Source: a virus
Lineage: Duplodnaviria > Caudoviricetes
DNA length: 34,270 nt
Strand: one strand, 5' to 3'
IMG/VR virus record: IMGVR_UViG_3300037461_000334
Span: 1 to 34,270 of that record
Position 1 is the stretch's first letter; each line of letters opens with the position of its first letter. Positions 135-26,793 of the stretch are shown piece after piece. The notes below the pieces were generated by a model. It ran no database searches. It worked only from the letters and a program-made list of their open reading frames with translations, and had not been told where the DNA came from. The position numbers and the translations under genes are program-made.

Positions 135-142
135 ATCTTAAT

Positions 143-5327: not shown

Positions 5328-5704
5328 TCTGGTTCTCCTATCGTCTTACCCATTATCCGGCCTTCCAATGCACCGACATTAAGCAGATCAAAAGCACCTT
5401 CCGTATTGTCTATAAAGTGAATTATCTGATCAATATTATGCTTGACCGGCTCTCCTTTGATCCTGCAGGCTGACTGGTAAGCACAGAAGAAAAGCTCATA
5501 ACGCTTAAAGACGTTAGGGGCCTTATCAATGATTATCTCATCCCCTTCTTTATGCACCTCTCCGTAAATCCCGGTTTCTGGGACCTGCCAGAGTTCAATA
5601 TTGCCGTTCAGCTCGCAAAACAGTTTCAGCGCATTAGTCCCGAACTGGAAACCAATTACCTCCTGATCATTTTTTAATTCAACAAATCCCCTTGCATTAT
5701 TCAT
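5315..5704 (-). CDS. tail assembly chaperone (gpG-like)
   Basis: Between tail tube and tape measure genes; ends at a slippery heptamer. Confidence 0.75.
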   Translation of the reverse strand: MNNARGFVELKNDQEVIGFQFGTNALKLFCELNGNIELWQVPETGIYGEVHKEGDEIIIDKAPNVFKRYELFFCAYQSACRIKGEPVKHNIDQIIHFIDNTEGAFDLLNVGALEGRIMGKTIGEPEGNR

Positions 5705-5716
5705 GGTTGCTCTTTT

Positions 5717-6130
5717 TTACGATGATGCTACTGTTCCCTTGTCGATTGGCCCGTCAGCCTCAAAGCCTCCGTTAATAGATACGGCCTCGTTCTTTTTAGC
5801 TGATAAGGAAAGGTTTTTCCCAAGTGCATAACCTGAGAACTTCAGCCCGCCTCCGGTCCCGTCAATAACCGCCATTTCGAGGAATACCCTTGTTTCCGCA
5901 TCCAGAATATCAAAGATTTCCTCCACGTTAAAGGTTAACGAGGGGTCACAAAGGTTACTAAAGGAGACATCCCAGTCTTTCTCTCCATAAAGCCGGTAAG
6001 CCCAGTTACCTGAGTCCTTACTTGAATACTTGATATTTGATGCGTTAATATTCAGGGTAAAATCCTCACTTGCCCCCATAGTAACACCGTCAACAACAAG
6101 TAACATTTTTGTTCCGTTAAATACTGCCAT
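5717..6130 (-). CDS. major tail tube protein (TP901-1-like)
   Basis: NGT start, SSKDSGNW...G.KDWDVS motif, synteny. Confidence 0.85.
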   Translation of the reverse strand: MAVFNGTKMLLVVDGVTMGASEDFTLNINASNIKYSSKDSGNWAYRLYGEKDWDVSFSNLCDPSLTFNVEEIFDILDAETRVFLEMAVIDGTGGGLKFSGYALGKNLSLSAKKNEAVSINGGFEADGPIDKGTVASS

Positions 6131-6131
6131 T

Positions 6132-6605
6132 TTATACTTCCTCCAAGATTAATTTAATTATAATTGATTTCATTAATTCCACTCCTTTATCGGTTTCGTA
6201 CCGCTGTGATGACATTGAAAGAATCGTACAGATCACCGTATTAAATCCTGATATGCCAGCAACCGCCTGTCCTCCACTCCCGGTGAATGATGATACCTCC
6301 GGCTGCTTAACTGATCCTCTGATCTGTGTCAGTATATCTTCAACAATAGAATCCAGTTGTGCATAACCCTTCCGGTTGCCTGCATCATCAGCATATACCT
6401 CAATTATCGCCTGGTGCTCTGTTATCCATTTGTCTTTAGTAGATAACTCTTCGCCCATAAAATAATTTTCACCAAGCAGGATATATGGCTTCGCCTTGTT
6501 TGCTGTGGCAAATGAATACACGGGTATCCATGAGCCGTTATAGCTTATTGCCCCGTGAAGTATATTATATAACCATTGCCTTATATTGCCCGATGCGTCT
6601 TTCAT
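6132..6605 (-). CDS. tail terminator / tail completion protein (DUF3168-like)
   Basis: PVYS...PYILLGE motif; synteny before tail tube. Confidence 0.7.
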   Translation of the reverse strand: MKDASGNIRQWLYNILHGAISYNGSWIPVYSFATANKAKPYILLGENYFMGEELSTKDKWITEHQAIIEVYADDAGNRKGYAQLDSIVEDILTQIRGSVKQPEVSSFTGSGGQAVAGISGFNTVICTILSMSSQRYETDKGVELMKSIIIKLILEEV

Positions 6606-7090
6606 AAGCTCTGCCTTCTACCTATTTGTGCTATTGTTGGTTCATTACCCCTTTTCTCTTCAAATCCCATATTTTTTAACTGTGCCTTCAACTCATAAAC
6701 AGTAAGTCTGAAATTATCCATTAAATAAGGATGACGTTTCATCCCCTTATGTTTCTTATGTGTCCACCATTCAGAGGCATATTCCCTGTCTGCTGGATGT
6801 ATTACCGCACTATCACCCGTACCCCATTCAACGTAAGGCGCATAAAAAACGTGTGTGTAAACAGCTCCACCGAATATATTACCAAATGTTTCCCGCCCAT
6901 ATTCACTTGCTATTTTTGCCCTTAAAATTCCATCATCACTCGGAGCGTCATTTTTCGCCCTTCTTTCAAGAGTTGTTATAGATGCTTTAATAATATTTGA
7001 GCACTTATCCCGGTTCTCCTGAGATAACTTACCCACCCACTTAGAAAAGGCGTTCTTATCAATATTAGTATGTAAAAAAGCCTGTGCCAT
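6602..7090 (-). CDS. HK97 gp10-like neck/tail component
   Basis: AK..AP.DDG.LR, YAPYVEWGT and GM..HPYL motifs. Confidence 0.8.
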   Translation of the reverse strand: MAQAFLHTNIDKNAFSKWVGKLSQENRDKCSNIIKASITTLERRAKNDAPSDDGILRAKIASEYGRETFGNIFGGAVYTHVFYAPYVEWGTGDSAVIHPADREYASEWWTHKKHKGMKRHPYLMDNFRLTVYELKAQLKNMGFEEKRGNEPTIAQIGRRQSL

Positions 7091-7416
7091 TAATTATATG
7101 CCGTAACCGTTAAATCATCCATTTTTTCACTCGGAACAACTGAATGAATAGTATAATAATTACCATCCCATAATATCCGGTGACTTGCCCCGCTCAAAGT
7201 ATAATCACTCCTCTTCCGGATAGTAAATTCAACAGCCGTCTTATACTTTATCCCTCCCTGCTCCAATGCTCTTGACTGCGATAATGTCATAGCCCTGCCC
7301 CATTCATAATAGGTACTTACCCATGTGGTTACTGATCCGCCCTGCCCGTCCTCCGTCTCAGTACCAACCTGGATAGTTAAATAGTGCCTCCGTTTTCCTG
7401 CCTGCGTTAAAACCAT
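7090..7416 (-). CDS. head closure / head-tail joining protein (SPP1 gp16-like)
   Basis: AGKRRHYLTIQ, DGQGG...TW, FTIR and RILWDG.YY.I motifs. Confidence 0.85.
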   Translation of the reverse strand: MVLTQAGKRRHYLTIQVGTETEDGQGGSVTTWVSTYYEWGRAMTLSQSRALEQGGIKYKTAVEFTIRKRSDYTLSGASHRILWDGNYYTIHSVVPSEKMDDLTVTAYN

Positions 7417-7994
7417 ACTTTCCTCCTGTAAGGTCCGGCCTCACGCCGGGAGTTGTTTGTTAATTCTGTACTGCCAGATATTCCGATATTTTCCCTCAGA
7501 TCATACTGAGTGACAATCTCTTTCAGAATACACTCCTTTAATTTAGTCGGGAGCGTCTCAGTGTTATCATCCCCATAACCCGCTGTGTATTCAACCCGGT
7601 AGCTGTTTGATGCGTATGTGCCTTTGGTTGACCAGTATTTATTTATCTTCAGAACAAAATCCTGATCGCCATAAACCCAGTAATCTGTATTTACAGTAAG
7701 CTCCGTTTCCGTGCCTTCAGCATCAATCCGGTAAACCTTGTCAACAGAAATATGCGGGCCATATGGCAGTTCAAACTCCATATCTTCCGGGGGTTTGATC
7801 CATGTAGCATGGATAGTCTTTTCAGCAAAAGAAGAAGCGGTATACTCCTCCAGTGCCTGACGACACGAAGTGATAAGCATTGTTAATATATCCTCATCTT
7901 CAGTGCCCGTGACCTTACACCATGCCTTTGCTTCAGCAAGCGTTACCGGTTCGGTTGCTAAATCAGTTACTGTCCGTATCTGTAGGTTTTTCAT
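7407..7994 (-). CDS. head-tail connector protein (HK97 gp6-like)
   Basis: EPVTLAEAKAWCKV, ED..L..LI, LPYGP, VEYTAGYG motifs, Y..RE near C-terminus. Confidence 0.85.
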   Translation of the reverse strand: MKNLQIRTVTDLATEPVTLAEAKAWCKVTGTEDEDILTMLITSCRQALEEYTASSFAEKTIHATWIKPPEDMEFELPYGPHISVDKVYRIDAEGTETELTVNTDYWVYGDQDFVLKINKYWSTKGTYASNSYRVEYTAGYGDDNTETLPTKLKECILKEIVTQYDLRENIGISGSTELTNNSRREAGPYRRKVWF

Positions 7995-8305
7995 CTTAAT
8001 TTATTTGGTGGCCTTTCGCCGTCATAAATCTTAACCAGTCCACGATTAGCAAGTGATTTGAACCGCCTTGCCGGAAGGTCCTGAACATCCCCCTCATACA
8101 GGTCCTCAATCATCCCCTTATAGTCATGCAGTACAATAACCCGAACATGACCATCAGGAACCGGGACCTTAGTCAGGTAAATCTTCTTTTGAAAGACCGG
8201 TTGTCCTTCCTGTTTCTCTTTTATTGCCGAGCTTATCGTTTCGACAATAATCGGTTGCTTGATCTTCTTCTTGATCGTGTTCTCTGTTGTCATTGCCTTG
8301 CTCAT
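7991..8305 (-). CDS. hypothetical head-module protein
   Basis: ATGA-coupled on both sides; C-terminal GDVQDL...R...L..RGLV resembles small proteins often found after capsid genes. Confidence 0.6.
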   Translation of the reverse strand: MSKAMTTENTIKKKIKQPIIVETISSAIKEKQEGQPVFQKKIYLTKVPVPDGHVRVIVLHDYKGMIEDLYEGDVQDLPARRFKSLANRGLVKIYDGERPPNKLR

Positions 8306-9276
8306 AGTCTTTTCATTATTGCATCCATTAAAAACTGTTCCATGTCATTAAGCTCTTTGGTATGTGATTTACATACCTCTTCAGCCCTTTTAAGTGCCCT
8401 TGTACTTGCCTTCTTGTACTCTTCCGGGTCATCCAGCTTCTTTATCGCCTCAATCCATGACAGAGGACTTTCAACCCGACAATAAATACCAGCGTCACCC
8501 ATTGACTCCTGTAATCCGGGAGTCGGGTTTGCTATAACAGGAATACCGGAAGACATCGCCTCAATAGCGGTTCTGCCATAGCTTTCATAAATTGAAGGCA
8601 TTAACAGAATCCTTGTTTTGCTGTAAATCTTTTTAGCATCCGATGTATTGGCCATGTATTCAACATTTGCCAGCCCCTCATCTTTAAGTTGTTTCCCGTA
8701 CCCGCCTTCAACACCGAGAAAGCTGTAATCCGGGAGCAGCCGAGCAAGATCGTGGAATAATGGCGATCCCTTGCGCTCAAAAAGGTTAATAAGGGTTAAC
8801 TTATTCCCCTTCTTTGCAACCTTATACCGCTTCGGATCCACCGGCGGATGAACAACAACGGAAGGGTTAGGGTATGCAAGCTCTTTAGCTGTGAAATTTG
8901 AATTATAAATACAATAAACAAATCTACCCTGTCCCCTGGGTTTGTCCTTCACCCTGATAACGTCAAAATTATTTGTGTTATGGATAACCACCGTGACAGG
9001 TTTATGATAAGCCTGTGCCATGTTAATAGCCTTGCCGGAGCGGTCCAGATGCGTTATTATCATGTCGCAGTTCTTAACAGCATCATGTGTGTAGCTGAAA
9101 TCATCCAGGTTAACCTGAACGCCCTCAAACTCGTAAGGCTTCAGCCTGCTTATCGGAAGCACCACCTCCACTTTATGCCCGGATGATACAAGGTGCTTGC
9201 ACATCTCATGGAGCATCCATTCAGCCCCTGCGTTCTGAATTGGCGGATAACCATGAATCATTACTAAAAATTTCAT
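8302..9276 (-). CDS. glycosyltransferase family 4 (GT-B)
   Basis: YPP..NAGAE N-terminus; KG; LLMPS.YESYGRTAIEAMSSGIPVIA (EX7E signature). Confidence 0.9.
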   Translation of the reverse strand: MKFLVMIHGYPPIQNAGAEWMLHEMCKHLVSSGHKVEVVLPISRLKPYEFEGVQVNLDDFSYTHDAVKNCDMIITHLDRSGKAINMAQAYHKPVTVVIHNTNNFDVIRVKDKPRGQGRFVYCIYNSNFTAKELAYPNPSVVVHPPVDPKRYKVAKKGNKLTLINLFERKGSPLFHDLARLLPDYSFLGVEGGYGKQLKDEGLANVEYMANTSDAKKIYSKTRILLMPSIYESYGRTAIEAMSSGIPVIANPTPGLQESMGDAGIYCRVESPLSWIEAIKKLDDPEEYKKASTRALKRAEEVCKSHTKELNDMEQFLMDAIMKRL

Positions 9277-9899
9277 ATTCGTTTATAAAATTTGTTTTCA
9301 AAAATCTGATAGTCTGTGTAAGCGTTTATAAAGTCGCTGTAATCTTTCCTCTGATAGCTGATCATGGGATATGTCATAAAGAACTGCCTGTATGGGGCCT
9401 GCTGCCTGTACCAGTCATCTATTATCCATATCCGGTTGTAATCGTAGTTATGAAGTATGTACTTAATAAATCTTTTGCTCAATATTGTGGCGTGCATGAG
9501 CCATGCGCCCTGCACCTTTACCAGTGATTTACTTTCTTCCCCCTGGTAATTGGTAACCTTCTTAATGTCTCCCGTCAGGTTACAACCCAGGTAAAGCATA
9601 TCCCACTCAATTGGTAAATCTTTCCACGCTTTTTTAAGCACTTCCTCCCATCCGTCAACCAGTTCAAAATCATCTTCAAAGAACACCAAAGCCTCCCCGT
9701 TGCCTTTAACACGGAGCATCTGCAAAAAGTCTTTCATGTAGTGCCGGTGCTTGTCCGAGTAATCGCAGACGGTTGTATAATGCGTCACTGGGTTTATGTC
9801 ATACATCTTACATATCTCCAAACATCGCTCCCATCTGTCCTTTCGGGCTTCAAGCCCTATCACTACAACATCTCCTATTTCATTAAGAAAAGAACTCAT
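9273..9899 (-). CDS. glycosyltransferase family 25-like
   Basis: VIGLEARKDRW, LVFFEDD, LP.EWDMLYLG, H(A), IDDW motifs. Confidence 0.8.
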   Translation of the reverse strand: MSSFLNEIGDVVVIGLEARKDRWERCLEICKMYDINPVTHYTTVCDYSDKHRHYMKDFLQMLRVKGNGEALVFFEDDFELVDGWEEVLKKAWKDLPIEWDMLYLGCNLTGDIKKVTNYQGEESKSLVKVQGAWLMHATILSKRFIKYILHNYDYNRIWIIDDWYRQQAPYRQFFMTYPMISYQRKDYSDFINAYTDYQIFENKFYKRI

Positions 9900-9904
9900 A
9901 ATTT

Positions 9905-9940
9905 AAAAAGAAGGGAAGGGGTGACTCAGCACCCCATCCC
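9905..9940 (-). terminator. rho-independent terminator after major capsid gene
   Basis: Minus strand GGGATGGGGTG-CTGAGT-CACCCCTTCCC followed by TTCTTTTT. Confidence 0.8.
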
Positions 9941-9956
9941 AACCAACCTACCATGA

Positions 9957-11201
9957 CTATGCAGATCCCTGAGCAAGGGCTGAAGTAAATGAACCGTATA
10001 TGAAGGCTTTTGCACGGTAAACAGCAATAGTTATCCTTTCGGAAATCCTCACCGTTACCATACCTTTTATGAAGTTGTCTTCATTCTCATACGACAGTTC
10101 AAGACTCATCTGCCTGCGGTCGAATACCTGTGCGCCCCTCTTACCGTCACCGACAAGGAATTGCCCTGCTGTGATAGCAGTAGTGACAATTACCGGAACA
10201 CCATCCAGGGTGATCTGTCCGTTTGGCATAAATATCCAGGGGTGAATATAATTACCGTTATCATCTTTGGTCAGCTTGATAAGAGTAGCATCTGTCGGGT
10301 GGATAAGTGCGAACGTGGGTTCATACTCATCATCCCTTGCCTGCCTCATTGCGTCAACCAAAATATCAATCCTTGATATATCACTATCAGCAAGGTTATC
10401 AACGTATGCAGTTGCACTAGTTGTAAGACCTGATAGGTTAATACCGGTTCCCGGACCATAAAGAAGCTGATAGTTCTCTTTCAGTTTCAGTTTAGACGGG
10501 AGACGGCTGTTAATGTAGCTTGTCAGTCCTTCAACATCTTCCAAAAGCTCTTCAGACAAAAGAACATAAGCGGTGATCTTCCTTACAGTAGCAGTACCAA
10601 CAGCCAGATCAAAGTCACTCTGTCCGTATTCCTGAGCTTCAGCAACCAGCAATGAACCATCACTAAGGGCGGATTCATATACATAAGTTACCGAGCTGGA
10701 TGAGGTAGTACCGGCGGAGATAAGGTCACGCACCCTGAAAGTAGTATCAGGATCAAAAACAATCTCGGTCTTATGATCAGGAGCGATAACGGCACCGGTC
10801 AGAGTGTTGCTCTGAGTCATATCATCAGCTTTGATGTCAATATTCAGGCTCTTGTTCTTACGGATATAATCTTTGATGTCCCCGTTCTTTGACTTCTGCT
10901 TAACCTCAATTATCGCATTCTTAACCGCATCACTGAAGGTCATGTTTTTAGGATCAATGACAACATCAGCCCTCTTGAGTTTTGTCTCAAGTGCGTCAAC
11001 CTGGTTCTGAAGATCGTTGTATTTCTTCAGTTCCGGTTCCAGTGCTTCCTTTGCAGCCTGCACCAATTCGCCTTTCATTTTCTTGAACTCTTCAGCAGGC
11101 ACTTCTCTGGCCTTCTTTGAATAGTCCTCCAGCTTCGCATCAATGGATTTACCCAATGACTCCAGCTGTTCATTCAGTCTTTTTATTTCCTGTTCGTTCA
11201 C
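9957..11201 (-). CDS. major capsid protein (HK97 fold, N-terminal coiled-coil delta domain)
   Basis: Coiled-coil N-terminus; KITAYVLLSEELLED, QLLYG.GTG.NL.GL, KDDNGNYI, L.GVPV, F.KGMVTVR..ER motifs. Confidence 0.95.
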   Translation of the reverse strand: MNEQEIKRLNEQLESLGKSIDAKLEDYSKKAREVPAEEFKKMKGELVQAAKEALEPELKKYNDLQNQVDALETKLKRADVVIDPKNMTFSDAVKNAIIEVKQKSKNGDIKDYIRKNKSLNIDIKADDMTQSNTLTGAVIAPDHKTEIVFDPDTTFRVRDLISAGTTSSSSVTYVYESALSDGSLLVAEAQEYGQSDFDLAVGTATVRKITAYVLLSEELLEDVEGLTSYINSRLPSKLKLKENYQLLYGPGTGINLSGLTTSATAYVDNLADSDISRIDILVDAMRQARDDEYEPTFALIHPTDATLIKLTKDDNGNYIHPWIFMPNGQITLDGVPVIVTTAITAGQFLVGDGKRGAQVFDRRQMSLELSYENEDNFIKGMVTVRISERITIAVYRAKAFIYGSFTSALAQGSA

Positions 11202-14524: not shown

Positions 14525-15784
14525 TTATCTCAATACAAACTCCGCTTTTTTAAGCATTAAATCAGTCACCGCATAGACAAGTGCGTCAATCCTGCCTGGT
14601 GATATATTGCTCTCCCTTGCATCCCAGCTTGTCATCTGGTCCTCTAATTTATCCAGTCTCCCGATATGATGAACCATGCCCCTTTCATATAATGCAACTA
14701 CCGGTTCCGCCCGTGCGACCTTGCCCCTATTGGCATGAACAGAGACAACCCTTGCCCTCGCATCTATATTTCGGATTATGGTTTTGACCATATCCCACCC
14801 CTGATTAACCTCTGCAACTATATGATCACCCTCATACTTGAATAATGTCCTTATCCCGTAAGTAGCCCATTGGTTAGGCGTGTATATCCCGGATACATCA
14901 TCAATAATGTAACAATGGCCGTCAATACCAACTCCCGCAGCAACAATCCCGGCCTCATCTGAGCTCTGCGTTGCCGTGCCTGAAGGATCAATAGCCACAA
15001 CCACTTTATTGTAAGCCGGGAATCCATTTAACTCCGGCCCCTTCTCTACCCTGTACTTATCAATTATATCATACCTCCAGAGTGCACCTTCAACATCATC
15101 AACAAACTCCCCAAATCTAAACCGCTTCTGTTGCCGGTGGCTGAGTGTTGATAGGACAGTATCTATATAATCAGGCGGAAGGTTCGCAAGGTTATCATCA
15201 GGGTTCATCCTCATGTGAGAGAATAAAGCCCTATCAATAGCCTCATTGCTTTCCGGGTTAATATTCTGAATAAACAACTTATATATCCAGTGTTGTGTGC
15301 TTGGCGGGTTACAATCAACATATATCCGGTTAATCAGCCCGGTTTTCTGTGCGAGCCTGGTTAATAGTGTTGAATAACTGCTCCACGTAACCTGTGATGC
15401 CTCGTTAACAAATATGGTTGAATACTCATTACCCAGCACCTTTTCAGTCCTCTCCTTATCATCCAGACCACCGAGCCAAACCTGAGAACCGTTACCGCAA
15501 TCAATAAACCAATCAGATTTATTATAATTAGGCTTAAAACCAGGGAAACACAGAGAAAGGACTTTGGGGATAGTGTCATACCAGAGGCTTTGCTTTGCGT
15601 GATTGAATGCGAAACGCACTATTAAATGCCGTGAACCAGACTCTTTTAATGCACGTATAAAAATTTGACGAATGATGATAAATGATTTCCCGCTCCGGCT
15701 CCCCCCGTATAACAGGGTGTATTTCGGCTCTGATCCCATCAGCCTGACCGCCTCCCTTTGCTTGTCTGTCTTTACAAAGGTCAT
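14525..15784 (-). CDS. terL: terminase large subunit
   Basis: Walker A YGGSRSGKS, Walker B IFVNEAS, DCNP coupling motif, nuclease AIDPS...DEAG, AEVNQG, K..RAEP, PGRIDAL. Confidence 0.95.
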   Translation of the reverse strand: MTFVKTDKQREAVRLMGSEPKYTLLYGGSRSGKSFIIIRQIFIRALKESGSRHLIVRFAFNHAKQSLWYDTIPKVLSLCFPGFKPNYNKSDWFIDCGNGSQVWLGGLDDKERTEKVLGNEYSTIFVNEASQVTWSSYSTLLTRLAQKTGLINRIYVDCNPPSTQHWIYKLFIQNINPESNEAIDRALFSHMRMNPDDNLANLPPDYIDTVLSTLSHRQQKRFRFGEFVDDVEGALWRYDIIDKYRVEKGPELNGFPAYNKVVVAIDPSGTATQSSDEAGIVAAGVGIDGHCYIIDDVSGIYTPNQWATYGIRTLFKYEGDHIVAEVNQGWDMVKTIIRNIDARARVVSVHANRGKVARAEPVVALYERGMVHHIGRLDKLEDQMTSWDARESNISPGRIDALVYAVTDLMLKKAEFVLR

Positions 15785-16128
15785 GCCTTCTGGTCATCTG
15801 TATCAAATTTCAAAGTGATACCGCCGGAGTGTTCTATCTCCTGCTTATCGCTCCACCCAAAGTTTTTAAGGGCAAATATAGAACCGGCAGCCGCCCCCTC
15901 ATGGAGATTAGCCTCATATACGGCCTCTACTCTTAATCGTGCCTTTTTAATAGTGTAACTAAATTCACCATCCTGCTCATACCTATAAAACGATTGACGG
16001 CTCTCAAAACCAAGCGCAAGAGCTAATCCCGTTATTGTGGGTTTGTTTTTATCCAGTGTCCCCCAATACTTATCTATTGCCTCTTGAAGCTCCTCTGCTG
16101 TTTTATATTTGGGTGGTCTTCCTGCCAT
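15781..16128 (-). CDS. terS: terminase small subunit
   Basis: GRPPKY, PTITGLALALGF.SRQS, IFALKNFGW.DK.E motifs; directly upstream of terL. Confidence 0.85.
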   Translation of the reverse strand: MAGRPPKYKTAEELQEAIDKYWGTLDKNKPTITGLALALGFESRQSFYRYEQDGEFSYTIKKARLRVEAVYEANLHEGAAAGSIFALKNFGWSDKQEIEHSGGITLKFDTDDQKA

Positions 16129-16151: not shown

Positions 16152-16445
16152 TCAATCTGCAATAAAAGTAGCGTTCTCCAGCATATAAGCTATATTAGCC
16201 TTCTTGCTGATGATATGCTTTGATTTCATCCGGCTTAGCTCTGTCCGGTTGCATACCATGATAATATCAGAGCTGTAAGGAAAGCAGTAGTGCCTCTTTC
16301 CCGTTGCTACCGTTCTCTTCCTTGCGTATATCCTTGCAAGTAAATGGCGACCATAGCCGGCAAATGAATGAGCGGTGAACTTGTCACTTATATAAATAAA
16401 ATGCAAATTCTTTACAAATAGCTTTATGTTTGTCCAGATTTTCAT
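16152..16445 (-). CDS. hypothetical basic protein
   Basis: ORF coupled (TAATG) to the upstream glycosyltransferase. Confidence 0.6.
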   Translation of the reverse strand: MKIWTNIKLFVKNLHFIYISDKFTAHSFAGYGRHLLARIYARKRTVATGKRHYCFPYSSDIIMVCNRTELSRMKSKHIISKKANIAYMLENATFIAD

Positions 16446-17029
16446 TAATTATGAACAAATAAGGGTTTATTAACATGAATAAGATCGTATTTATTAGCAA
16501 TAGATAAGGCCCGGCACTCTTCAGCATAGATACCGTCAGCATCGAAATCAACATGATTGAACCCTATCGCTTTCGCAACCGGGTACTTAACAATAAAAGC
16601 TCCCATGTCTATATAACTCCTTTTCAACTGTGACTCATGCACCGTGTATTTAAAATGAGAATGAACGGTGTCGCAGTAAACTATCCCGATAGTCCGGGAG
16701 CATTTACCGAGCATGGTTTCAACAAATACCGGCACATACCAGTTATCATCATTGGTCAGTAATATATAATCCATATCATCGCCCTCAAGTGCATCCAGCA
16801 TCTTCTTCCTGTTCGGATGGCCATACAACCCGTTGCGTTTGGCTGATGCATAAAACTCTATGCGCTTGTCATCATATAGCCCCATGACCTCACAGATTGA
16901 TTTCGGGGCTGGACCATCATACATGATATAAAGTTTCCATCGTGGATCCGTCTGCCGGATGAAACAATCAATAAGCCCCCTTAATTCAATGGGCCTTTCA
17001 TAAGCTACTGCGATAACGTGTAATATCAT
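16445..17029 (-). CDS. glycosyltransferase family 2 (GT-A)
   Basis: VAYER..L, QTDP.W.L.IMYDG, TNDDN (DxD-like), IDMG, DADG motifs. Confidence 0.85.
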   Translation of the reverse strand: MILHVIAVAYERPIELRGLIDCFIRQTDPRWKLYIMYDGPAPKSICEVMGLYDDKRIEFYASAKRNGLYGHPNRKKMLDALEGDDMDYILLTNDDNWYVPVFVETMLGKCSRTIGIVYCDTVHSHFKYTVHESQLKRSYIDMGAFIVKYPVAKAIGFNHVDFDADGIYAEECRALSIANKYDLIHVNKPLFVHN

Positions 17030-17718
17030 TCCGGTTGCATTAATTCACATTTGCGACAAATAATATCCGAGTCCTGTTCATTTGATAGCATGGTATAATC
17101 TTCCCGGTTCAGGTTATCAAAATGGGTATCGTACAAGTTGCCTATGCAATGCTTTAATCCGTAATCCTGGCAGCACAAATAAACATTTCCATTTGGAAGT
17201 ACCACGTTATGATCAAATTTCTTCTCCGCAAAAAGACAATGGAAGGTACCTAACTGCTCCGGCCTGTCCCATACATTCCCTGCCCTTGACCATTTCCATT
17301 GATCGGTAATAACAGCCGTTCTACCCTGGCATATCTTTCTTTCAAATAGTTCTTTTTTCTTTGCAAATTCAGCAGCATCAGCGTGAGGGTAAAGATGAAA
17401 GCACAGATCGGTAAACTGCACACCCTTTAAAAATTGCACATCTGACTTGCTGAAGTTACTCAGGGTTGTATAGAGGACAACCTTATATCCCCGGTCAAAT
17501 GCATACCATATCATTTGCGCCCCGAATGAATTATAAAATATCTCTGAAAATCCTGAAAAGTCGATCCTCACATCTTTGGGTACATTGGATAAAATATGGA
17601 TAAAGTTTTCAAGAGTCATTGATCTTAACCCCTCATAAGACTTCCTTAATAACCCCTGCGGACAGTAAGCGCATCCCACCGGGCAACCGATATATGATGT
17701 TATTTCAAGCGTTCTCAT
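17026..17718 (-). CDS. radical SAM protein with SPASM/twitch domain
   Basis: GCPVGCAYCPQ (CxxxCxxC), FSGFSE, C-terminal C...GNVYLCCQDY..IGNL...CRKC. Confidence 0.9.
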   Translation of the reverse strand: MRTLEITSYIGCPVGCAYCPQGLLRKSYEGLRSMTLENFIHILSNVPKDVRIDFSGFSEIFYNSFGAQMIWYAFDRGYKVVLYTTLSNFSKSDVQFLKGVQFTDLCFHLYPHADAAEFAKKKELFERKICQGRTAVITDQWKWSRAGNVWDRPEQLGTFHCLFAEKKFDHNVVLPNGNVYLCCQDYGLKHCIGNLYDTHFDNLNREDYTMLSNEQDSDIICRKCELMQPE

Positions 17719-18508
17719 TAAATATAGCGTTTATTTCTCTTTGTATACAGTCAGCGTAATCGTGGTATTCTATTGCCTTAACGTAGTTCTCAAGCCGTGA
17801 CAGCTGACACTTGTAGTAATCTCTTTCCTCAAGTGAGTTGCAAATCTTTATCAACTCGTCAACTGAGGTAAATTTTAATATACCTTCAGGGTTAAAGAAA
17901 TTATCCACGTTACTTGCCCCCCAATAGATCGGAACCGTGTTAGTGATCATTGGATCAATCAGCTTTTCAGAAAATGAGTTTGGATAATCATAACTATCTA
18001 TGGCAATATGGAACATAGTTCTCATGGCCCTCTGCTTATCCCGTTTGTCGTATCCAAGCTCCAGCTCGCTCCTCATCCCGGTCCTTGCTCCGGTATAAAA
18101 CCACTTCGGGACCTTTATTTCGTCACGTCTTTTATATAACTCATGTCTCAATGAATGACCGGGACAAGCGTTGCGAGCAGAGAACACAGCGGAGACTCCA
18201 AATATTTTTGGTATATTTATCTCAGGCTTGCAGAATGCAGTTAACCCGATAAAAAAGCGGGCTTTCGGTAGGTGTAAAAGTTCAGGTATAAATGTAAGCA
18301 GATAATCAAATCTGTCCTGATTATCAATGATCAGCTTGTTGAAGTGTCCCTCCGGCTGGATGGTTGCAAATATAACTGTCGTTCCTATTTTGGGAAAGCC
18401 TTTGAGATATTCGGGGATTTCATAATCAATAACCAGGTCAACCGGCGAAGGCACGGTTATCTCATGGTCAAGAATTTCCTCGAAGTTTGCGTATATGTTT
18501 GCCTTCAT
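17705..18508 (-). CDS. GT10 alpha-1,3-fucosyltransferase-like glycosyltransferase
   Basis: FHIAIDS....FSEKLID.....TVPIYWGA resembles the GT10 fucosyltransferase motif. Confidence 0.75.
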   Translation of the reverse strand: MKANIYANFEEILDHEITVPSPVDLVIDYEIPEYLKGFPKIGTTVIFATIQPEGHFNKLIIDNQDRFDYLLTFIPELLHLPKARFFIGLTAFCKPEINIPKIFGVSAVFSARNACPGHSLRHELYKRRDEIKVPKWFYTGARTGMRSELELGYDKRDKQRAMRTMFHIAIDSYDYPNSFSEKLIDPMITNTVPIYWGASNVDNFFNPEGILKFTSVDELIKICNSLEERDYYKCQLSRLENYVKAIEYHDYADCIQREINAIFNENA

Positions 18509-19086
18509 ATTTTCGGTAACCTTTTAAAATCAGCATTGCCCCATGTCCGACCTATCCATTTAACACCCATCAGATAAAATCCCTGTTCATACAGCCATTC
18601 TACAACATCCATAAACATGGGACAGCCCTCGTAAAGCTCTGCCCTGTAAACTTCAACCTCAACTGTCTTAATGCTTTTAAGCGATTCAACCGCCCCCTTC
18701 AGTACCTCCATTTCATAACCCTGAACGTCAATATGCAGATGGTCATAAAGCGACCGGTCGTATTCTATATTGTCCAGCTTATCAATGAAACACATTTCCT
18801 TTCCTGAAAAAACTATATCAGGATACTGCTCCAGGTGAACAAGCGGGTTAAGCACCGAGCAGGATTTTCCGCCGTGAACCTTCTCAAGATTTATCATAAC
18901 CGCCCCGGTCATGTTACCGATTGCCAGTCGAAAGGTCTTGATGTTGTCTTTCTTTGGCAGTATCTCACACATCTTTTTATATGTTTCGGCAATGGGTTCA
19001 AAAAATATAAAGTTTTCAACCCCTTCGGCAACCCAGCCCTCATACTCCTGCGCAAGGTTTGCACCAACCTGAATAACTCCTTTCAT
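18505..19086 (-). CDS. FkbM-family SAM-dependent methyltransferase
   Basis: QVGAN, FFEP, AIG, KLD, IDVQGYE.EVLKGA, EV...ELYEG motifs. Confidence 0.9.
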   Translation of the reverse strand: MKGVIQVGANLAQEYEGWVAEGVENFIFFEPIAETYKKMCEILPKKDNIKTFRLAIGNMTGAVMINLEKVHGGKSCSVLNPLVHLEQYPDIVFSGKEMCFIDKLDNIEYDRSLYDHLHIDVQGYEMEVLKGAVESLKSIKTVEVEVYRAELYEGCPMFMDVVEWLYEQGFYLMGVKWIGRTWGNADFKRLPKI

Positions 19087-19892
19087 ACTGGTTTAAATGT
19101 TGAATCCGGTTTAGGTATGTCAAATAAATATTGAGCTATCGCCTCGCCATTGCGGAAGCACTGCTCGTGCCATTGTAAGGTCTGTGTATAGTGCCACCCG
19201 GCTCCCATCTTCTTATTCCATTCGCTTAACCGCTTCTGATAGTCAGCAATTTTCTGCATATACAGCTCAAGATTCCAGAACTTATAATGCAGTACCTTCC
19301 ACTCCCGATCGGTACACATCCTTATCCCCCGACTATCCTGGTTCTTGTCAAGAGGACTGGCCCAATGCGCCCCGGTAACATAGCGTATCTCACTTATTTC
19401 CTCCGGGCGGAAGCAACACAGCTTCTCCTCCGGCACATGATAAGTTCCCCTCTGTGAGTGAACAAAGGGATGATCGGCTGTGTATAACGGAGCATTTAAA
19501 GAAATCATATTGTACCCGCAGGGCTTGATCATATTAAAACCCCTTTTGTAAACCTCAGTAAGGTCAAGATCAAATACAGGTTTCCCTTCAATCACTCTTG
19601 CCCTGCAAAATATTTCATCGAAATCGACAATGACAACCCACTCGCATAGCCCCCTTGATTCTTTCCACGAATAATTTTTTATTTCAAGATACAGGTCATC
19701 CCTGATCTGATTATCGGAATCATAAAGACGAATCTCAACACGGGGATCCTGCTGTAATAATTCAACCGTGTTATCCGTACTCATATTGTCATATACAACT
19801 ATCCGCTCCGCCTCTTTATACGCAGTAAGAAAGTTTTTAACGAAGTGGCTTTCGTTATACGTGAGAGTATATACGTGTATCCTGTTTTTCAT
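19083..19892 (-). CDS. glycosyltransferase family 2 (GT-A)
   Basis: Probable start MKNRIHVYTLTYNE at 19892 (ATGA overlap); VYDN.STDNT, WVVIVDFDE, LHYK motifs. Confidence 0.85.
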   Translation of the reverse strand: MKNRIHVYTLTYNESHFVKNFLTAYKEAERIVVYDNMSTDNTVELLQQDPRVEIRLYDSDNQIRDDLYLEIKNYSWKESRGLCEWVVIVDFDEIFCRARVIEGKPVFDLDLTEVYKRGFNMIKPCGYNMISLNAPLYTADHPFVHSQRGTYHVPEEKLCCFRPEEISEIRYVTGAHWASPLDKNQDSRGIRMCTDREWKVLHYKFWNLELYMQKIADYQKRLSEWNKKMGAGWHYTQTLQWHEQCFRNGEAIAQYLFDIPKPDSTFKPV

Positions 19893-20542
19893 CCTATATG
19901 TTTGCAATATTTGTCTAATAATGTTACTGCTCTGAATCCCTTCTGATAATAAGCCTGTCCGATCCTGCACTCGGTTAATGCGTTAAAATCTCCAGGCTGA
20001 ATAAACCCGGTAAACGGAGCAACCAGTTGATAATCCGCCAACCGCCTTAAGCCAGGATTCCATGAGAAACCGTGCCATGATCCACCGAGTGCTCCGGTTG
20101 CCATGTACCGGTAATTAATATTTTTGAGGTTATAAACCGTTGGTTCGACCGGGTGAGTGTTCGTGTCCTGCAATCCCCTTAACCATACCTGTAAAATCTT
20201 TGGAAACTCCTCAAGTATCTGAAGGCTCGCACTCATAAATCCTGACTTGTAGAACTCCCAGTCATTCTCTAAATGAAAGATAAATGGAGTTTTAACCTTG
20301 CTATAAGCCCAGTCAATAGAGGGTATTTGCCCCTGATTAGTCCGGTTAAAAAATAACCTTACCGGTATATGAAAATCGAACAATTCAAAGTATTGTCTTA
20401 TCTCATCATGCACCTCCTGTTTGCCGGAGTCGTCAATCAGTATTATCTCATCAAGACAAACATCATTGAACTCCATAAATGAACTGAAGGTTTGCCTTAA
20501 CAAACTAACCCGACCGCATGATGTGATGACAAGAGTTATCAT
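19889..20542 (-). CDS. glycosyltransferase family 2-like
   Basis: ITSCGR..LL..T..SF, IDDSG, N.GQ..SID.AY, FHLENDW, FSWNPGLRR, HIG motifs. Confidence 0.8.
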   Translation of the reverse strand: MITLVITSCGRVSLLRQTFSSFMEFNDVCLDEIILIDDSGKQEVHDEIRQYFELFDFHIPVRLFFNRTNQGQIPSIDWAYSKVKTPFIFHLENDWEFYKSGFMSASLQILEEFPKILQVWLRGLQDTNTHPVEPTVYNLKNINYRYMATGALGGSWHGFSWNPGLRRLADYQLVAPFTGFIQPGDFNALTECRIGQAYYQKGFRAVTLLDKYCKHIG

Positions 20543-21138
20543 GCCATATTTATTTTTGCGTTCTCTTCCATTTCTGCCCGGTAATCAAAATCCGTAAGCC
20601 GGATGTCTGAATAACTCGGCCTCTGCCATGCGATAAGCGGAGAGCAGACAAAGCAGTTAAGTAGTGCCTGACCTCTCATAAATAGCCAGTGATCAATCTG
20701 ATTAAACTCTTTATTATCGGGATCCCATAACTCTATCATCTTTCTCCTTCCCTTTGCACTGTAAAGCATAGCATGGGTACAATGAACCCCGCCGGTAATC
20801 ATATACAGATTTTCGCTGTACTTAATCGCAGGTGTTTTAACATTTGCACCCAGATAAAGAATATCAAAATCAGAGGGTAATTGTTTAATAGCCTTCAGAA
20901 ATATATCACTCCAATTATCCGATAGATGTATGTCATCTTCAAAGATCAGTATTGAATGATTGAAGTCCTGTTTTAAAACTGCATGATGACTCAAAGCACA
21001 GCCCCTCTCCCCGCTATGTGATACTATTGCGGAGAACCTTTGATAATCGGTTATGCCGGCCTTCTCAAGCTCACTGACAGTCTCTGACCAGCGATCCTGA
21101 CGAAAATCCAAATTAATGACAATTATATCAAGCCCCAT
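20539..21138 (-). CDS. glycosyltransferase family 25-like
   Basis: INLD.RQDRW, RFSAI, GCALSH, LIFEDD, DILYLG, THA, ID.W, QRPSYSDI motifs. Confidence 0.9.
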   Translation of the reverse strand: MGLDIIVINLDFRQDRWSETVSELEKAGITDYQRFSAIVSHSGERGCALSHHAVLKQDFNHSILIFEDDIHLSDNWSDIFLKAIKQLPSDFDILYLGANVKTPAIKYSENLYMITGGVHCTHAMLYSAKGRRKMIELWDPDNKEFNQIDHWLFMRGQALLNCFVCSPLIAWQRPSYSDIRLTDFDYRAEMEENAKINMA

Positions 21139-21908
21139 ACATTTGTTTTCAAGTTATCACTTGAACAGGTATTTTCATCCCTGTATTCATGCAACCTCTC
21201 TCCCAGCCTTAACCCGGTTACTTTTATTTTTGTCTTATCATTGCCGTATTTTTGAATAAAAGCAGAGGCTAGATCAATTAATTTATAAGCATCCATCGGC
21301 ACTGTATGAGTCCCCGGATCATCCATTTTTGAAAGTATGAAATCAACGATAGTCTGCGGTGAAATGAAAAACCGAGTCATATCCATTGATGTTATACTGA
21401 TTTCGTTCTTTTCCCTTATCTGATCAAGCCATATATTTAAAACCGATCCATTCGACCAGAGTATATTCCCTGATCTTATGTTTGTAAACCCAGCCTGCAA
21501 TACAACAGCCTCAATCAGTGATTTAGTCCGCCCGTAAACTGAGCCCGGATTAACCGCCTTGTCACTGCTCATGTTAATCAGCTTACAGCCATTAAGAATA
21601 CAGGCGTTAATAACATTTAATGAACCCTGCACGTTTGTCATTATGGCCTCCCGTGCGTTCTGCTCACAAATGTCAATATGTTTTAGTGCCGCTAAATGGA
21701 AGCAGTAATCCTGCCCCTTAATCGCTTTATAAACGCCGGATGAATCCCTTATATCCCCAATTATGTAATTAAATTCCGGGTGCTTCGCTTTCATTTCAGC
21801 CTGCCTCTGCTCTCCTCTTGAAAATATAGTAACATCATAACCTTTAAGGCTTTTTGCCATACATCGACCAATTGTTCCCGTTCCCCCGGTTATTAGGCTT
21901 TTTTTCAT
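21123..21908 (-). CDS. NAD-dependent nucleotide-sugar dehydratase (UDP-GlcNAc 4,6-dehydratase, PseB/FlaA1/CapD-like)
   Basis: ITGGTGTIG, GDIRD, FHLAALKH, TNV.GS.NV, SSDKAVNP.SVYG.TK, MTRFF, GLR.GERLHE motifs. Confidence 0.9.
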   Translation of the reverse strand: MKKSLITGGTGTIGRCMAKSLKGYDVTIFSRGEQRQAEMKAKHPEFNYIIGDIRDSSGVYKAIKGQDYCFHLAALKHIDICEQNAREAIMTNVQGSLNVINACILNGCKLINMSSDKAVNPGSVYGRTKSLIEAVVLQAGFTNIRSGNILWSNGSVLNIWLDQIREKNEISITSMDMTRFFISPQTIVDFILSKMDDPGTHTVPMDAYKLIDLASAFIQKYGNDKTKIKVTGLRLGERLHEYRDENTCSSDNLKTNVWGLI

Positions 21909-21950: not shown

Positions 21951-22074
21951 TATAAAAGGTTATTAACTAATTGCATGAAGCTATTAACTTAACTATATCT
22001 GCTCAAATAGAGTGATTAGAGTAGGATTGTTACTTATACCCGGTAGTTGTATGCAAGCGTAAAAGACACAGCAT

Positions 22075-22838
22075 TTAATCAACTGTTGTGCAACTTTTAC
22101 CGTATTTTTTAAAAGCCCTGCCCGCTTCGGTTTTTTCAAAACCGTTTGAATTATCATAGTGCTTTGGGTATGGTTTCTCTTTTAGTAAACATTTTGCAAT
22201 TGATTTTTGGTTAATAAAATAAATGTATCTGAATTGCCTTAATTCAATTTTAGTTGCTTTTTCGTGGAATCCTTTAGCCTCTAATCTTGCTTTACTGTTC
22301 CTGTTATTATTAGTTATATGGCTGTTGTGGTAAATCTCATTTTCAAATTCCCACATTACATTCGTGTGTTCGCCATAAAACTTGAAATTAGCCGCTTGGT
22401 AAACAATACCCAAACCACCACATCTTTCATCAGCAAAACTCTGAATCCATTTTACTTTGGGAAATTTGCCACGAATGTATTTTATACTGTATGATATTGC
22501 CCTGCTTTCTGTATTTCTTGGTGCTTTATCATCAAACCACATTCGGTTTAATTCTTTATACTCATTTAGTTCTGTATCACTAACAACAGATGCCATACTT
22601 TGCGGATTCATTGCATATCCATATTGTAATACACCCAAAAGCTCGCCATTTATAAAACAGCCCAAATGAATATGAGTTGTTGCATCATTACAAACTTTGT
22701 GGCTATAATGGTTTTTTATTACCAGCTCTTTGCTTTTTTGTTTTGCAATTTCTTTAATATAAAAATCAGGTTCACCAAAGCCAATTATTTCAGGTTTACC
22801 AAATAATGTCGGGTTTGTAATATAATTTTTTTTGCCAT
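22075..22838 (-). CDS. mom: Mu Mom-family DNA adenine modification protein; ATG at 22838 is out of frame across an A8 run (254 aa if one A is added or -1 slippage occurs)
   Basis: NHYS, HLG.F....L.GVLQYGYAMNP, ELNRMW..D..PRN.ESRAISY, WIQSFADERCG..G.VYQA.NF, QFRYI, PYPK match recalled Mu Mom sequence; Mom frame continues upstream of the track's TTG start (22665) to the A-run at 22826-22833. Confidence 0.85.
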
Positions 22839-22902
22839 CGCTCTGCTTTTAAAAAATACTATTGTCGTTCATTTAATTATCATTTGCGGTTAAAAAACGC
22901 CA

Positions 22903-23004
22903 GCATACAACACGTTGTATATGTCAGTTTTGCCAATTGGCTTTTGTGCTTTGAATCGAAGTATGTGCGTGGCAAAACCGAACACATACAACCATTCGTT
23001 AGGT
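22903..23004. repeat. integron attC-like imperfect hairpin
   Basis: Arms GTTGTATATGTCAGTTTTGCCA (22914-22935) and TGGCAAAACCGAACACATACAAC (22970-22992), bounded by ..ATACAAC (ends 22911) and GTTAGGT (22998-23004). Confidence 0.6.
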
Positions 23005-23110
23005 TGCATACTCGCCCTCGCTATTTTTTAAAGGCATTAACAGGCGAAATCCAGGACAACGGCAGTTTTGACAAACAGCCGTGACACATGACAATGACAG
23101 GCTACTGAAC

Positions 23111-23995
23111 CTACAAGTATGTAAGTTCAATAGCCTTGAAAATTTGATACGGTACATAAGGATTAACTGAGTTACCAAGTGCTCTTATTCTGTCCACCCG
23201 ATGGGATACCCTTGCATTACTTCTGCAAAGTTCGGATGCAACTTCAATCCAGTCTCGTAACCAATTTGCCTGCCCGGTTCGTCTAATCGTTTCCGATTCC
23301 CTTTTTGTTTGCTCATACCGGGCGTATCCTTCCAAGACCTCGCAGTCAATGTAGCAATCGCTGTCTGGACATCCATTCCACCCGTCCCGTGTATTCCCGG
23401 ACTGTTTGCCGATTGCGCCTTCAAAGTTGGAATTGACTTCAATTTGCCTGTTAAAGTTAATGTTACCGGCCGGGTTTTGTCCCCATTGCTGTACTGATAA
23501 TTTCCGCTTTCTTGACTCCTGATTGTAGGCAATGATCCATACCCGTTCTCTTTTATCCCACGCTCCGACGCTTGCAGATGGAATAATAAACGGTTGGACT
23601 TCATAACCCTCACCTTCCAGCGCAAGGCAAATATTTTCGAGTTCCATTCCGATGATCCCAGGAACATTCTCACCAACGATGAAAGGCGACCGTACCTCTC
23701 GTATAACTCGAAACATTTCCGGCCAGAGATGACGGTCATCTCCTTTCCCTTTTTGCTTCCCTGCAACGGAAAAAGGTTGGCAAGGAAACCCTCCTGTAAT
23801 GATGTCGATTTTTCCTTCATATTCTTTACCATTAAAATCTTTAATATCCAGATAGCACTTTGATTCAGGAAAATGCTTTGCAACCTTTGAGTTGCACCAT
23901 TGATCAATCTCAACATGAGCAATATTATTCCAACCCATCCATGATGCAGCTAACTGAAAACCCCCGATACCGTTGAATAATGCTAAGTGATCCAT
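23111..23995 (-). CDS. dcm: DNA (cytosine-5)-methyltransferase, alpha subunit
   Basis: Motif I LFNGIGG, IV GGFPCQPFS, VI ENVPG, VIII KRERVW, X ALGNSV; motif IX not evident in this frame. Confidence 0.9.
   Translation of the reverse strand: MDHLALFNGIGGFQLAASWMGWNNIAHVEIDQWCNSKVAKHFPESKCYLDIKDFNGKEYEGKIDIITGGFPCQPFSVAGKQKGKGDDRHLWPEMFRVIREVRSPFIVGENVPGIIGMELENICLALEGEGYEVQPFIIPSASVGAWDKRERVWIIAYNQESRKRKLSVQQWGQNPAGNINFNRQIEVNSNFEGAIGKQSGNTRDGWNGCPDSDCYIDCEVLEGYARYEQTKRESETIRRTGQANWLRDWIEVASELCRSNARVSHRVDRIRALGNSVNPYVPYQIFKAIELTYL
23185..23922 (-). CDS. nested alternative-frame beta subunit of the C5 methyltransferase (true start probably internal)
   Basis: 245-codon same-strand overlapping ORF ending TLTARSWKD...KLHPNFAEVMQGYPIGWTE (target-recognition/motif IX-like). 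Confidence 0.65.
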   Translation of the reverse strand: MLMLRLINGATQRLQSIFLNQSAIWILKILMVKNMKEKSTSLQEGFLANLFPLQGSKKGKEMTVISGRKCFELYERYGRLSSLVRMFLGSSEWNSKIFALRWKVRVMKSNRLLFHLQASERGIKENGYGSLPTIRSQESGNYQYSNGDKTRPVTLTLTGKLKSIPTLKAQSANSPGIHGTGGMDVQTAIATLTARSWKDTPGMSKQKGNRKRLDEPGRQIGYETGLKLHPNFAEVMQGYPIGWTE

Positions 23996-24092
23996 GTTTC
24001 TATTAATTTTGGCCTACCGGCCACGCCTGTTAAAGCCTTTAAAAATAGGTTGCATACCATATCGGGTATAATTTCAGCAAATACACGCCTAT

Positions 24093-26232: not shown

Positions 26233-26793
26233 TTATTTTCTTTTAATACCAAAATCGGATTTTCTAATCTTACACATCTTCCCATCTTTACCGTGAAAAA
26301 CAATTCCCTCAATGTCATTCTTTATATCTGATAAATAATCTTTAATTGATTCGAAAGAAAAATCAGTAATAGGGACCCGGCAACATCCATGCTGAATTAA
26401 ATAATGCTTATCGTAACCTTCTGGATTGCCTTGTATTTTCGGCCCGCATAATTCATAAGTACCATCAGCCCACTCGTTAATAACAAAAGCCTCAAAAAAA
26501 TACTTATCTGCCGGTTCGCTGATCTCACACCTTACCCAATGTGGCCAATGTCCAGTAATCGGATCGGGGTCCTGACAGGATATTGCATTAGCCGGGACTT
26601 GTTTCCCCTTCTTTACATCATAACGCTTGTATAATTTGCCATTAATAACAGCGCAGGCCGTGCCGTCAAACTTCCTTGTCGGTATGCCGGGCTCATTAAA
26701 AACCCATTGATTTTCCGGGTTAACCTCATTAATTACCCGGCCCAAATCATTGGGGTCTTTCTTAAAAAGTGTGGTTATCTTTTTCATTTGCAT
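26233..26793 (-). CDS. ATP-dependent RNA ligase-like nucleotidyltransferase (DUF5565-like)
   Basis: Ligase motifs: I TRKFDG, III YELCG, IV EGIVF, V KIRK. Confidence 0.7.
   Translation of the reverse strand: MQMKKITTLFKKDPNDLGRVINEVNPENQWVFNEPGIPTRKFDGTACAVINGKLYKRYDVKKGKQVPANAISCQDPDPITGHWPHWVRCEISEPADKYFFEAFVINEWADGTYELCGPKIQGNPEGYDKHYLIQHGCCRVPITDFSFESIKDYLSDIKNDIEGIVFHGKDGKMCKIRKSDFGIKRK

Follow-up and report, generated by a model that had tools for sequence, protein, structure and literature searches.

The closest described counterparts of the system reported here, a set of ten glycan genes in a tailed phage (Duplodnaviria; Caudoviricetes), were found among the mycobacteriophages. O-linked glycans at the C-termini of the capsid and tail tube proteins, including those of Che8, are described in the accessible text of PMC12619734, and Che8 gp110 and Corndog gp38 are termed essential for capsid glycosylation in that of PMC12363180. 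Genes 108-110 of Che8 were located at the right end of its genome, on the circular map two genes ahead of the small terminase subunit gene (terS), and genes 35-38 of Corndog in the head module; the capsid and tail tube proteins end in GS and GS in Che8 and in GS and DS in Corndog, respectively. The glycan of the Che8 type reportedly sits on the terminal serine, and mycobacteriophage virion O-glycosylation, with Che8 gp108-110 and Corndog gp35-38, is said to be the subject of Freeman et al. 2023 (PMID 37329881). The DNA analysed here (IMG/VR record IMGVR_UViG_3300037461_000334, positions 1 to 34,270), called the window, was found to contain an eight-gene cassette before the terminase genes and two further glycosyltransferase (GT) genes behind the capsid gene. 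These ten genes are rather likely to form one late-expressed phage system that builds an O-glycan on the C-terminal serines of the capsid (GSA) and tail tube (ASS) proteins.

The window shared with the Che8 and Corndog systems soluble phage GTs, a GT25-like enzyme among them, and a methyltransferase, encoded next to the terminase genes or within the head module, and also capsid and tail tube proteins ending in or near serine, an ending which HK97 has too. Unlike them, it contained ten genes, against three or four, and used both the terminase and the head sites; its GT4 enzyme was unmatched by Che8 108-110 or Corndog 35-38, and its own nucleotide-sugar dehydratase, GT10-like and radical S-adenosylmethionine (SAM) enzymes were present. 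The capsid serine was penultimate, the PHROGs were different and the host is probably of the Bacteroidota. No window protein matched PHROG 854, 1721, 8858, 4447 or 6608, which hold the Che8 and Corndog proteins, and no pairwise phmmer match was found; the last GT of the cassette (GT2c) showed no similarity to Che8 gp108 and gp110. The capsid-linked GT25-fold enzyme (GT25c) was found to be remotely similar to gp110/gp38 (hhalign 87.6%, E 3.5e-6), and a hidden Markov model (HMM) of the window GT25 family, run against a set of nine proteins, matched gp110/gp38 (E 2e-7 and 2e-5), the value for Che8 gp110 being 2e-7. The window system would work like those of Che8 and Corndog, although by protein family it does not belong to them.

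The cultured Streptomyces phage TurkishDelight was found to contain in its head module a GT4 (gp20) with two tandem domains, of the same family as the capsid-linked GT4 of the window (GT4c; HMM E 1e-173). It is annotated only as a glycosyltransferase, and the searches made gave no function for it. Serine is the last residue of both the capsid hexamer and the tail tube protein of this phage, which, unlike the window, contained no GT25c partner in the stretch fetched. Serotype conversion by phages through Gtr-type systems is known. The GT clusters of cyanophages (PMC7824862) and Gratiaviridae (PMC8008677) are interpreted in the accessible text of these papers as host-surface modifiers, without experimental test. 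Variable multi-GT clusters with sugar-synthesis genes are common to these clusters, to Gtr serotype conversion and to the window, whereas the window, unlike Gtr systems, contained no GtrA/B/C-type membrane parts and showed late-operon coupling and a capsid-tail signal. Virus-made virion glycans are described for the giant viruses PBCV-1 and mimivirus (PMC9614988, accessible text). Like them, the window encodes GTs, methyltransferases and sugar synthesis, here presumably for its own particle, and GT25c resembled mimivirus R655; unlike it, the giant viruses have eukaryotic hosts, and the glycans of PBCV-1 are N-linked (PMC7826918, accessible text). No report of a GT4 capsid cassette or of Bacteroidota-phage virion glycans was found in the literature searched, which excluded Freeman et al. 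2023 (this may list TurkishDelight-type GT4 genes) and most subscription papers.

Capsid-linked glycosyltransferases

All gene-sized open reading frames (ORFs) of the window, and the stem-loop given below, lie on the minus strand. The gene of the HK97-fold major capsid protein (9957-11201; PHROG 10; HK97 gp5, E 2e-67) was found to be followed by a terminator-like stem-loop with a T-run (9905-9940), which was read from the sequence and was not in the site list of the scan, and by two GT genes that lie before the head-tail adaptor gene and had been overlooked in an earlier annotation made from the sequence (the first-pass annotation). GT25c (9273-9899) lies directly behind the capsid gene and has the GT25 fold. 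GT4c (8302-9276) is a GT4 enzyme with the GT-B fold and matched PF00534 (E 3e-13) and PHROG 26352 (E 5e-74), the latter annotated as 'unknown function'. Coupled to GT4c was a small conserved ORF of 104 amino acids (orf104, 7991-8305), found with 38-52% identity in eight relatives and without a named family in PHROG, Pfam or Atlas. The maximum hydropathy window in the GT25c and GT4c pair was 0.78.

The AlphaFold2 (AF2) model of GT25c, with a predicted local distance difference test (pLDDT) score of 96, was found to match best in PDB human ColGalT1 (Z 17.9, root-mean-square deviation 2.6, 199 aligned residues) and an unnamed oligomeric GT (Z 17.9), followed by mimivirus R655 (Z 16.6); the match to beta-1,4-galactosyltransferase had Z 13.1. 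The top match, ColGalT1, is a protein-directed enzyme, although the acceptor of GT25c would not be fixed by the shared fold of the model. GT25c also resembled many giant-virus GT25s. No mycobacteriophage protein was named among its best 50 BFVD matches, several of which were unnamed, and no match was found by tblastn against cultured phages.

GT25c was found directly behind the capsid gene in all 19 loci retrieved with the capsid protein, near-duplicates included, followed by GT4c in the 16 that were long enough. Among 80 viral GT4c loci, the capsid gene was just upstream in 66, another 11 started too close to show it but contained the adaptor gene behind, and three differed. GT4c was present in 48/48 capsid-adaptor intervals, a count that is partly selection because GT4c itself was the query with which many of the cassette-bearing loci had been retrieved, and GT25c was missing in 15 of these 48. 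In prophages of Streptomyces, Kitasatospora and Actinomadura, GT4c was also found behind capsid genes of a distant family.

C-terminal ends of the capsid and tail tube proteins

The predicted acceptor in the capsid protein is Ser413, its penultimate residue (codon 9963-9965), and the tail tube protein (5717-6130; PHROG 1407, PF06199), which ends in ASS, is the predicted second acceptor. In the capsid family of the window, G[ST]A or GSGS ends were found in 43/43 unique proteins with the capsid cassette and in 1/32 without it. In a second, distant family, that of actinobacterial phages, the capsid contained a serine or threonine (Ser/Thr) end in 70/70 proteins with the cassette against 2/25 without, and the cassette-less close relatives (about 61% identity) contained acidic or hydrophobic tails. 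The tail tube proteins of this second family contained the Ser/Thr end in 13/14 and 1/7 cases, respectively. Where a GT25/gp110-like gene was found to replace GT4c behind the capsid gene (L316), the capsid ended in GS. On trees built without the tails, three independent contrasts were found in the first family and one or two in the second, and none ran the wrong way.

For these counts, 36 duplicates, six cassette-less rows with less than 1.3 kb downstream, four open ends and four low-scoring rows (including L130) were dropped from the first family, and 36 duplicates, four cassette-less rows with less than 1.3 kb downstream, one open end and two low-scoring rows from the second. L128 was counted as cassette-less despite the presence of GT4c further upstream.

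The pre-terminase cassette

The first-pass annotation had described a translationally coupled run of eight glycan genes, without membrane components, directly upstream of terS and of the large terminase subunit gene (terL). The run, its order and its orientation were borne out (16445-21908, minus strand, neighbours overlapping by 4-16 nucleotides). It was found upstream of and co-oriented with the terminase genes (14525-16128; Pfam, PHROG), but the adjacency was not strict, as a coupled ORF of 97 amino acids (16152-16445, one-nucleotide overlap with GT2c) and a 23-nucleotide gap intervene. This ORF remained unassigned: it had no family match in Pfam, PHROG and further family scans and no homologue in the relatives' loci compared. 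No membrane segment was found in the eight proteins, the maximum 19-residue hydropathy window being 1.35, in agreement with the earlier description. The GC content of the cassette and that of its third codon positions (GC3) matched those of the structural genes. The family calls held by Pfam for the PseB/CapD-like, GT25, GT2, FkbM and SPASM proteins, but not for GT10.

The first gene (21123-21908) encodes a short PseB/CapD-family nucleoside diphosphate (NDP)-sugar 4,6-dehydratase of 261 amino acids (PF02719, E 7e-56; PDB 2gn4, E 1e-41), in which the GxxGxxG, S-D-K and YxxxK catalytic motifs were found to align with 2gn4. The PseB chain in PDB is longer by about 80 residues, and the same short form as in the window was present in four related loci (L021, L035, L036 and L066). 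The PseB equivalog TIGR03589 was not reached (166 bits, cut-off 407.75), and the superfamily assignment was still kept. The dehydratase gene was followed by the cassette copy of the GT25 family (20539-21138; PF01755, E 5e-10), which showed 29% identity to GT25c and had homologues (32-42%) directly behind the capsid genes of other phages. The GT2 genes GT2a (19889-20542; PF00535, E 1e-8) and GT2b (19083-19892; PF13704, E 3e-11) came next, with 53% and 64% identity to L021, respectively; the start of GT2b is most likely the ATG at 19892, as in L021, with a longer GTG frame from 19970.

The FkbM-family SAM methyltransferase (18505-19086) matched PF05050 (E 8e-12) and was above the cut-off of TIGR01444. 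The GT10-like glycosyltransferase (17705-18508; 53% to L021), whose donor is uncertain, matched PF00852 below the threshold (E 6.5e-4, 19.8 bits, cut-off 23.9) and a PDB FucT over residues 150-223 only (E 7.5e-6), and its motif region aligned with the H. pylori FucT; the 'fucosylated' glycan of the first-pass annotation rests on this sub-threshold match. It was followed by a short radical-SAM enzyme (17026-17718; SPASM, E 1e-7) of a family of 115 proteins, with SPASM/twitch cysteines. It was found to contain CxxxCxxC (C12, C16, C19), and C161, C182, C183, C221 and C224 were invariant in 26 homologues. The sole PDB match of its profile was BtrN (4m7s; E 1.2e-7, full length). BtrN catalyses a radical-SAM dehydrogenase reaction, and the two share short length, CxxxCxxC and the twitch region, the similarity being remote. 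The last gene, GT2c (16445-17029; PF00535, E 1e-6), is the conserved end of an otherwise variable cassette, and its nearest Atlas clusters were 96-100% viral.

The 351-401 Bacteroidota genomes sampled (searched without a positive control) and the plasmids searched contained no close copy of the cassette genes and no near-identical host lipopolysaccharide (LPS) or capsule locus such as the first-pass annotation had considered.

The cassette in related phages

The same gene order was looked for in related phages, and the cluster was found to recur there. The closest cluster, L021, contained all eight genes in the same order with 53-64% protein identity, plus three inserts, flanked by a transglycosylase-like gene on one side and HNH/terS/terL on the other; mom and dcm were absent from this interval. 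The block FkbM-GT10-radical SAM-GT2c was present in L392 and L399. The other close relatives kept GT2c only, and the rest of their cassette consisted of different sugar genes, namely RmlD-like, GT32-like, GT11, aminotransferase, acetyltransferase, heptose-pathway and methyltransferase genes. In L035 and L036, an aminotransferase and an acetyltransferase were found behind the same short dehydratase. Pre-terminase glycan genes of differing contents were present in 6/6 close relatives (portal identity at least 57%) with at least 2 kb visible.

A terminase gene was found within four ORFs of GT2c in 36 of 47 loci, which were the best-scoring matches and included crAss-like phages; it was not found in eight, of which two end there, and three were unscorable. 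GT2c was not found behind any capsid gene in the loci examined. The GT25, GT32-like and GT11 families were found at both the pre-terS and the post-capsid sites. Only four ORFs with at least three predicted membrane segments were present in the 54 related loci screened, their identity as flippase or polymerase not being checked. By tblastn against cultured phages, GT2c matched one jumbo-phage contig only. Locus searches with a single protein were insensitive (none for GT4c, one distant locus for PseB), and alignment queries worked.

Environmental crAss-like phages (L035, L036, L038, L045, L049 and L066) were found to contain variable glycan cassettes, with GT2c as the last gene and terL immediately behind it. 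In other tailed phages (L476 and L482), the interval from the capsid gene to the adaptor gene contained radical-SAM homologues together with GTs. Low-GC contigs (L403/L471 and L394-L398, one from a 405-kb IMG/VR record) contained long glycan clusters around the same radical-SAM family, with GT10, GT11, GT25, deoxysugar enzymes and B12 radical SAM. A phage with a P22/SU10-like portal (L216, 9046-15167) contained a nonulosonic-acid-type pathway directly behind the adaptor gene, with NeuB, a PseB-like enzyme, an aminotransferase, two GNAT proteins and a CMP-transferase.

Proposed pathway

In the proposed pathway, GT4c would add the first sugar to the terminal Ser/Thr. It is the likely primer because in the actinobacterial phages no other GT was found after the capsid gene and the Ser/Thr end goes along with GT4c, and because GT25c is missing from part of the capsid-adaptor intervals, as given above. 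GT25c, as a gp110 relative, may be an alternative primer or may add the second sugar. GT2c would then join the variable part to the primed sugar, and GT2a, GT2b, GT25 and the GT10-like enzyme would extend it from host nucleotide sugars and a 6-deoxy-N-acetylhexosamine (6-deoxy-HexNAc) precursor, the putative product of the PseB-like enzyme. This product would need a host enzyme, since no partner reductase or aminotransferase was present in the cluster, and fucose would be supplied by the host. The FkbM protein would O-methylate, and the BtrN-like radical-SAM enzyme would oxidise or epimerise a sugar carbon. Swapping of the pre-terminase cassette between sister phages would give each its own surface glycan.

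A cytoplasmic glycan pathway acting on the virion, as put forward in the first-pass annotation, was the best supported of the readings considered, by the presence of GT25c and GT4c, the gp110 homology and the C-terminal serines. That the eight cassette genes and the capsid-linked pair work on a single glycan is our inference, for which the occurrence of the GT25, GT32-like and GT11 families at both sites is the chief argument.

Several observations weigh against this one-pathway reading. The homology to gp110 is remote, and the three enzymes of Che8 belong to other PHROGs. The G[ST]A pattern was defined only after the data were seen, and with the looser measure of Ser/Thr in the last two residues the counts in the window's capsid family were 43/43 with the cassette against 15/32 without. 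The tube tails did not discriminate in that family (24/26 against 3/4), and a sign test cannot reach significance with only three and one or two contrasts. In HK97, the capsid protein has the C-terminus GS and the tube protein a final S, yet bases 1-10000 contain no annotated glycosyltransferase. A distant capsid, L130, which was below the score limit and uncounted, ends in AFLYV and yet carries the cassette. The pre-terminase cassette was missing in 8/8 more distant GT4c phages, and the 33 weakest GT2c homologues (30-36%) were mostly near replication genes of large phages. In complete crAss-like genomes with GT2c cassettes, no GT4c match and no GT25 match was found (GT25 in two genomes; no positive control), and the likely capsid proteins of the crAss-like GT2c phages were mostly without a Ser/Thr end.

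Alternative explanations

The crAss-like phages just described make the strongest rival out of an arrangement of two virion glycans, since they lack detectable GT4c or GT25 and, for the most part, Ser/Thr-ended capsids. Here GT4c and GT25c would build a short C-terminal glycan, and a cassette primed by GT2c would decorate other virion proteins, either a Ser/Thr-rich tail or internal sites. This was considered a less probable arrangement, with several observations in its favour: GT2c cassettes precede the terminase genes in crAss-like and other phages showing no GT4c, GT4c occurs without the cassette, GT2c lies behind no capsid gene found, and a tail protein of 982 amino acids contained 18% Ser+Thr. 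The movement of extension-type families between both sites speaks against it, as does the pre-terminase cluster of Che8, which serves the capsid and tube termini according to the accessible text cited above. Whether of one glycan or of two, the virion is the target with high probability, since the likelihoods of the one-pathway reading and of its two-glycan rival add up.

Remodelling of the host surface, in which the cassette would alter LPS, capsule or glycoproteins at a cytoplasmic step and lead to superinfection exclusion, is unlikely. GT25, GT10, GT2, FkbM and PseB are typical LPS and capsule families, and the similar cyanophage and Gratiaviridae clusters are so interpreted, but the window cluster contained no membrane component, multi-segment ORFs were as rare in the related loci as stated above, the genes are coupled into a late operon, no integrase was found among the ORFs scanned of the window or of the complete relative G001, and the capsid-tail pattern would be left unexplained. 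A DNA target, raised in the first-pass annotation from the adjoining Mom and Dcm genes, found little support and is very improbable. According to the accessible text of bioRxiv 10.1101/2023.12.21.572611, some DNA-directed phage GTs are of GT-A or GT-B type and can lie near terminases, but the same paper ties DNA GTs to 5mYOX or ThyS, and neither was found among the window ORFs scanned. ThyS was present in 0/5 relatives, two of them complete, with the control positive in 10/14 genomes; a search for a TET/JBP dioxygenase (0/5 relatives) was uninformative, its control having matched nowhere. The complete cassette of L021 has neither mom nor dcm as a neighbour, and the mom gene is GC-poor, with its ATG out of frame, in a unit that is replaced elsewhere. 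The least probable explanation, to the point of being negligible, is recently captured host cargo without a selected role. The variation of the cassette between relatives and the PseB-like enzyme without its partners would suit it, but the kept frames and order in L021 and the recurring sub-blocks largely refute it, and the GC and GC3 values matching the structural genes and the lack of a close cellular copy in the genomes sampled point the same way.

The phage, its host and neighbouring genes

The window was found to be most of a siphophage genome, containing replication genes, a lytic-transglycosylase-like gene, dcm, mom, the eight-gene cluster, terS/terL, portal, protease and capsid genes, connectors and tail genes. 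A contig of 38,819 bases encoded the same proteins, and the window is thus incomplete; its last stretch (33992-34270) is a short tandem repeat, at which the assembly probably broke off. The single run found to contain the window carries the label wetland metagenome. In Logan contigs of run X1, which may be the source sample, the depth was even from terL to mom, including terS and the cluster, with zero differences, and no RNA run was found among the runs listed for the window. A scan for sigma-70 sites returned 58, with 44.7 +/- 6.8 expected by chance, and was set aside.

The phage is uncultured and its host is probably of the Bacteroidota. This assignment rests on weak signs, since the prophage search found no host: the DnaB scores were 312-314 bits with two Bacteroidota and 250-293 bits with three others, and BT4734-like and SprB domains were present in relatives. 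Among the sampled Bacteroidota genomes, searched without positive controls, GT4c was found in 0/401, GT2c in 0/401 and the GT10-like gene in 0/351.

Inverted repeats were found to flank the mom unit (22046-22911) and, separately, the dcm unit (23025-24045). A lower-depth contig of the same run joins 22048 to 22997 via 633 other bases, one side being supported by only 29 bases. Because of the inverted repeats and this replacement contig, the two units seem to be exchangeable and independent of the glycan genes. The Mom-like gene (22075-22838, GC 0.34) contained an ATG at 22838 that is out of frame across a run of eight A, which may reflect phase variation, slippage or decay. The Dcm gene (23111-23995) overlaps a long ORF (23185-23922, minus strand) in another frame, which also matched the methyltransferase phrog_1008; some two-subunit C5 methyltransferases are encoded in overlapping frames. 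An RLIG1-family RNA ligase (26233-26793) was found among the early genes. The gene at the tape-measure position (3737-4963), named by position only, encodes 408 amino acids (315-530 in relatives) and implies a short tail.

Significance

The analysis names GT4c as a candidate enzyme, Ser413 as the predicted residue and, as cultured systems, TurkishDelight and the Streptomyces and Kitasatospora prophages, among them those of Streptomyces flavochromogenes NRRL B-2684, S. rishiriensis NBRC 13407 and Kitasatospora cheerisanensis KCTC 2395. A soluble GT acting on a short tag at the C-terminus would also be of use in glyco-engineering. More tentatively, the GT4s of PHROG 26352 may be a second widespread priming family, present in Bacteroidota-type and actinobacterial phages with distant capsids, and the pre-terminase cassette may be a swappable 'virion serotype' locus giving O-antigen-like coats with rare sugars, including a radical-SAM-tailored one, with related cassettes in crAss-like phages. 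Virion glycosylation of tailed phages has been reported for a few mycobacteriophages and framed there as antibody shielding. Wetland phages do not encounter antibodies, and a conserved capsid cassette together with a variable glycan locus in them would point to other pressures, for which capsid-sensing host defences, grazers, proteases and adhesion are candidates.

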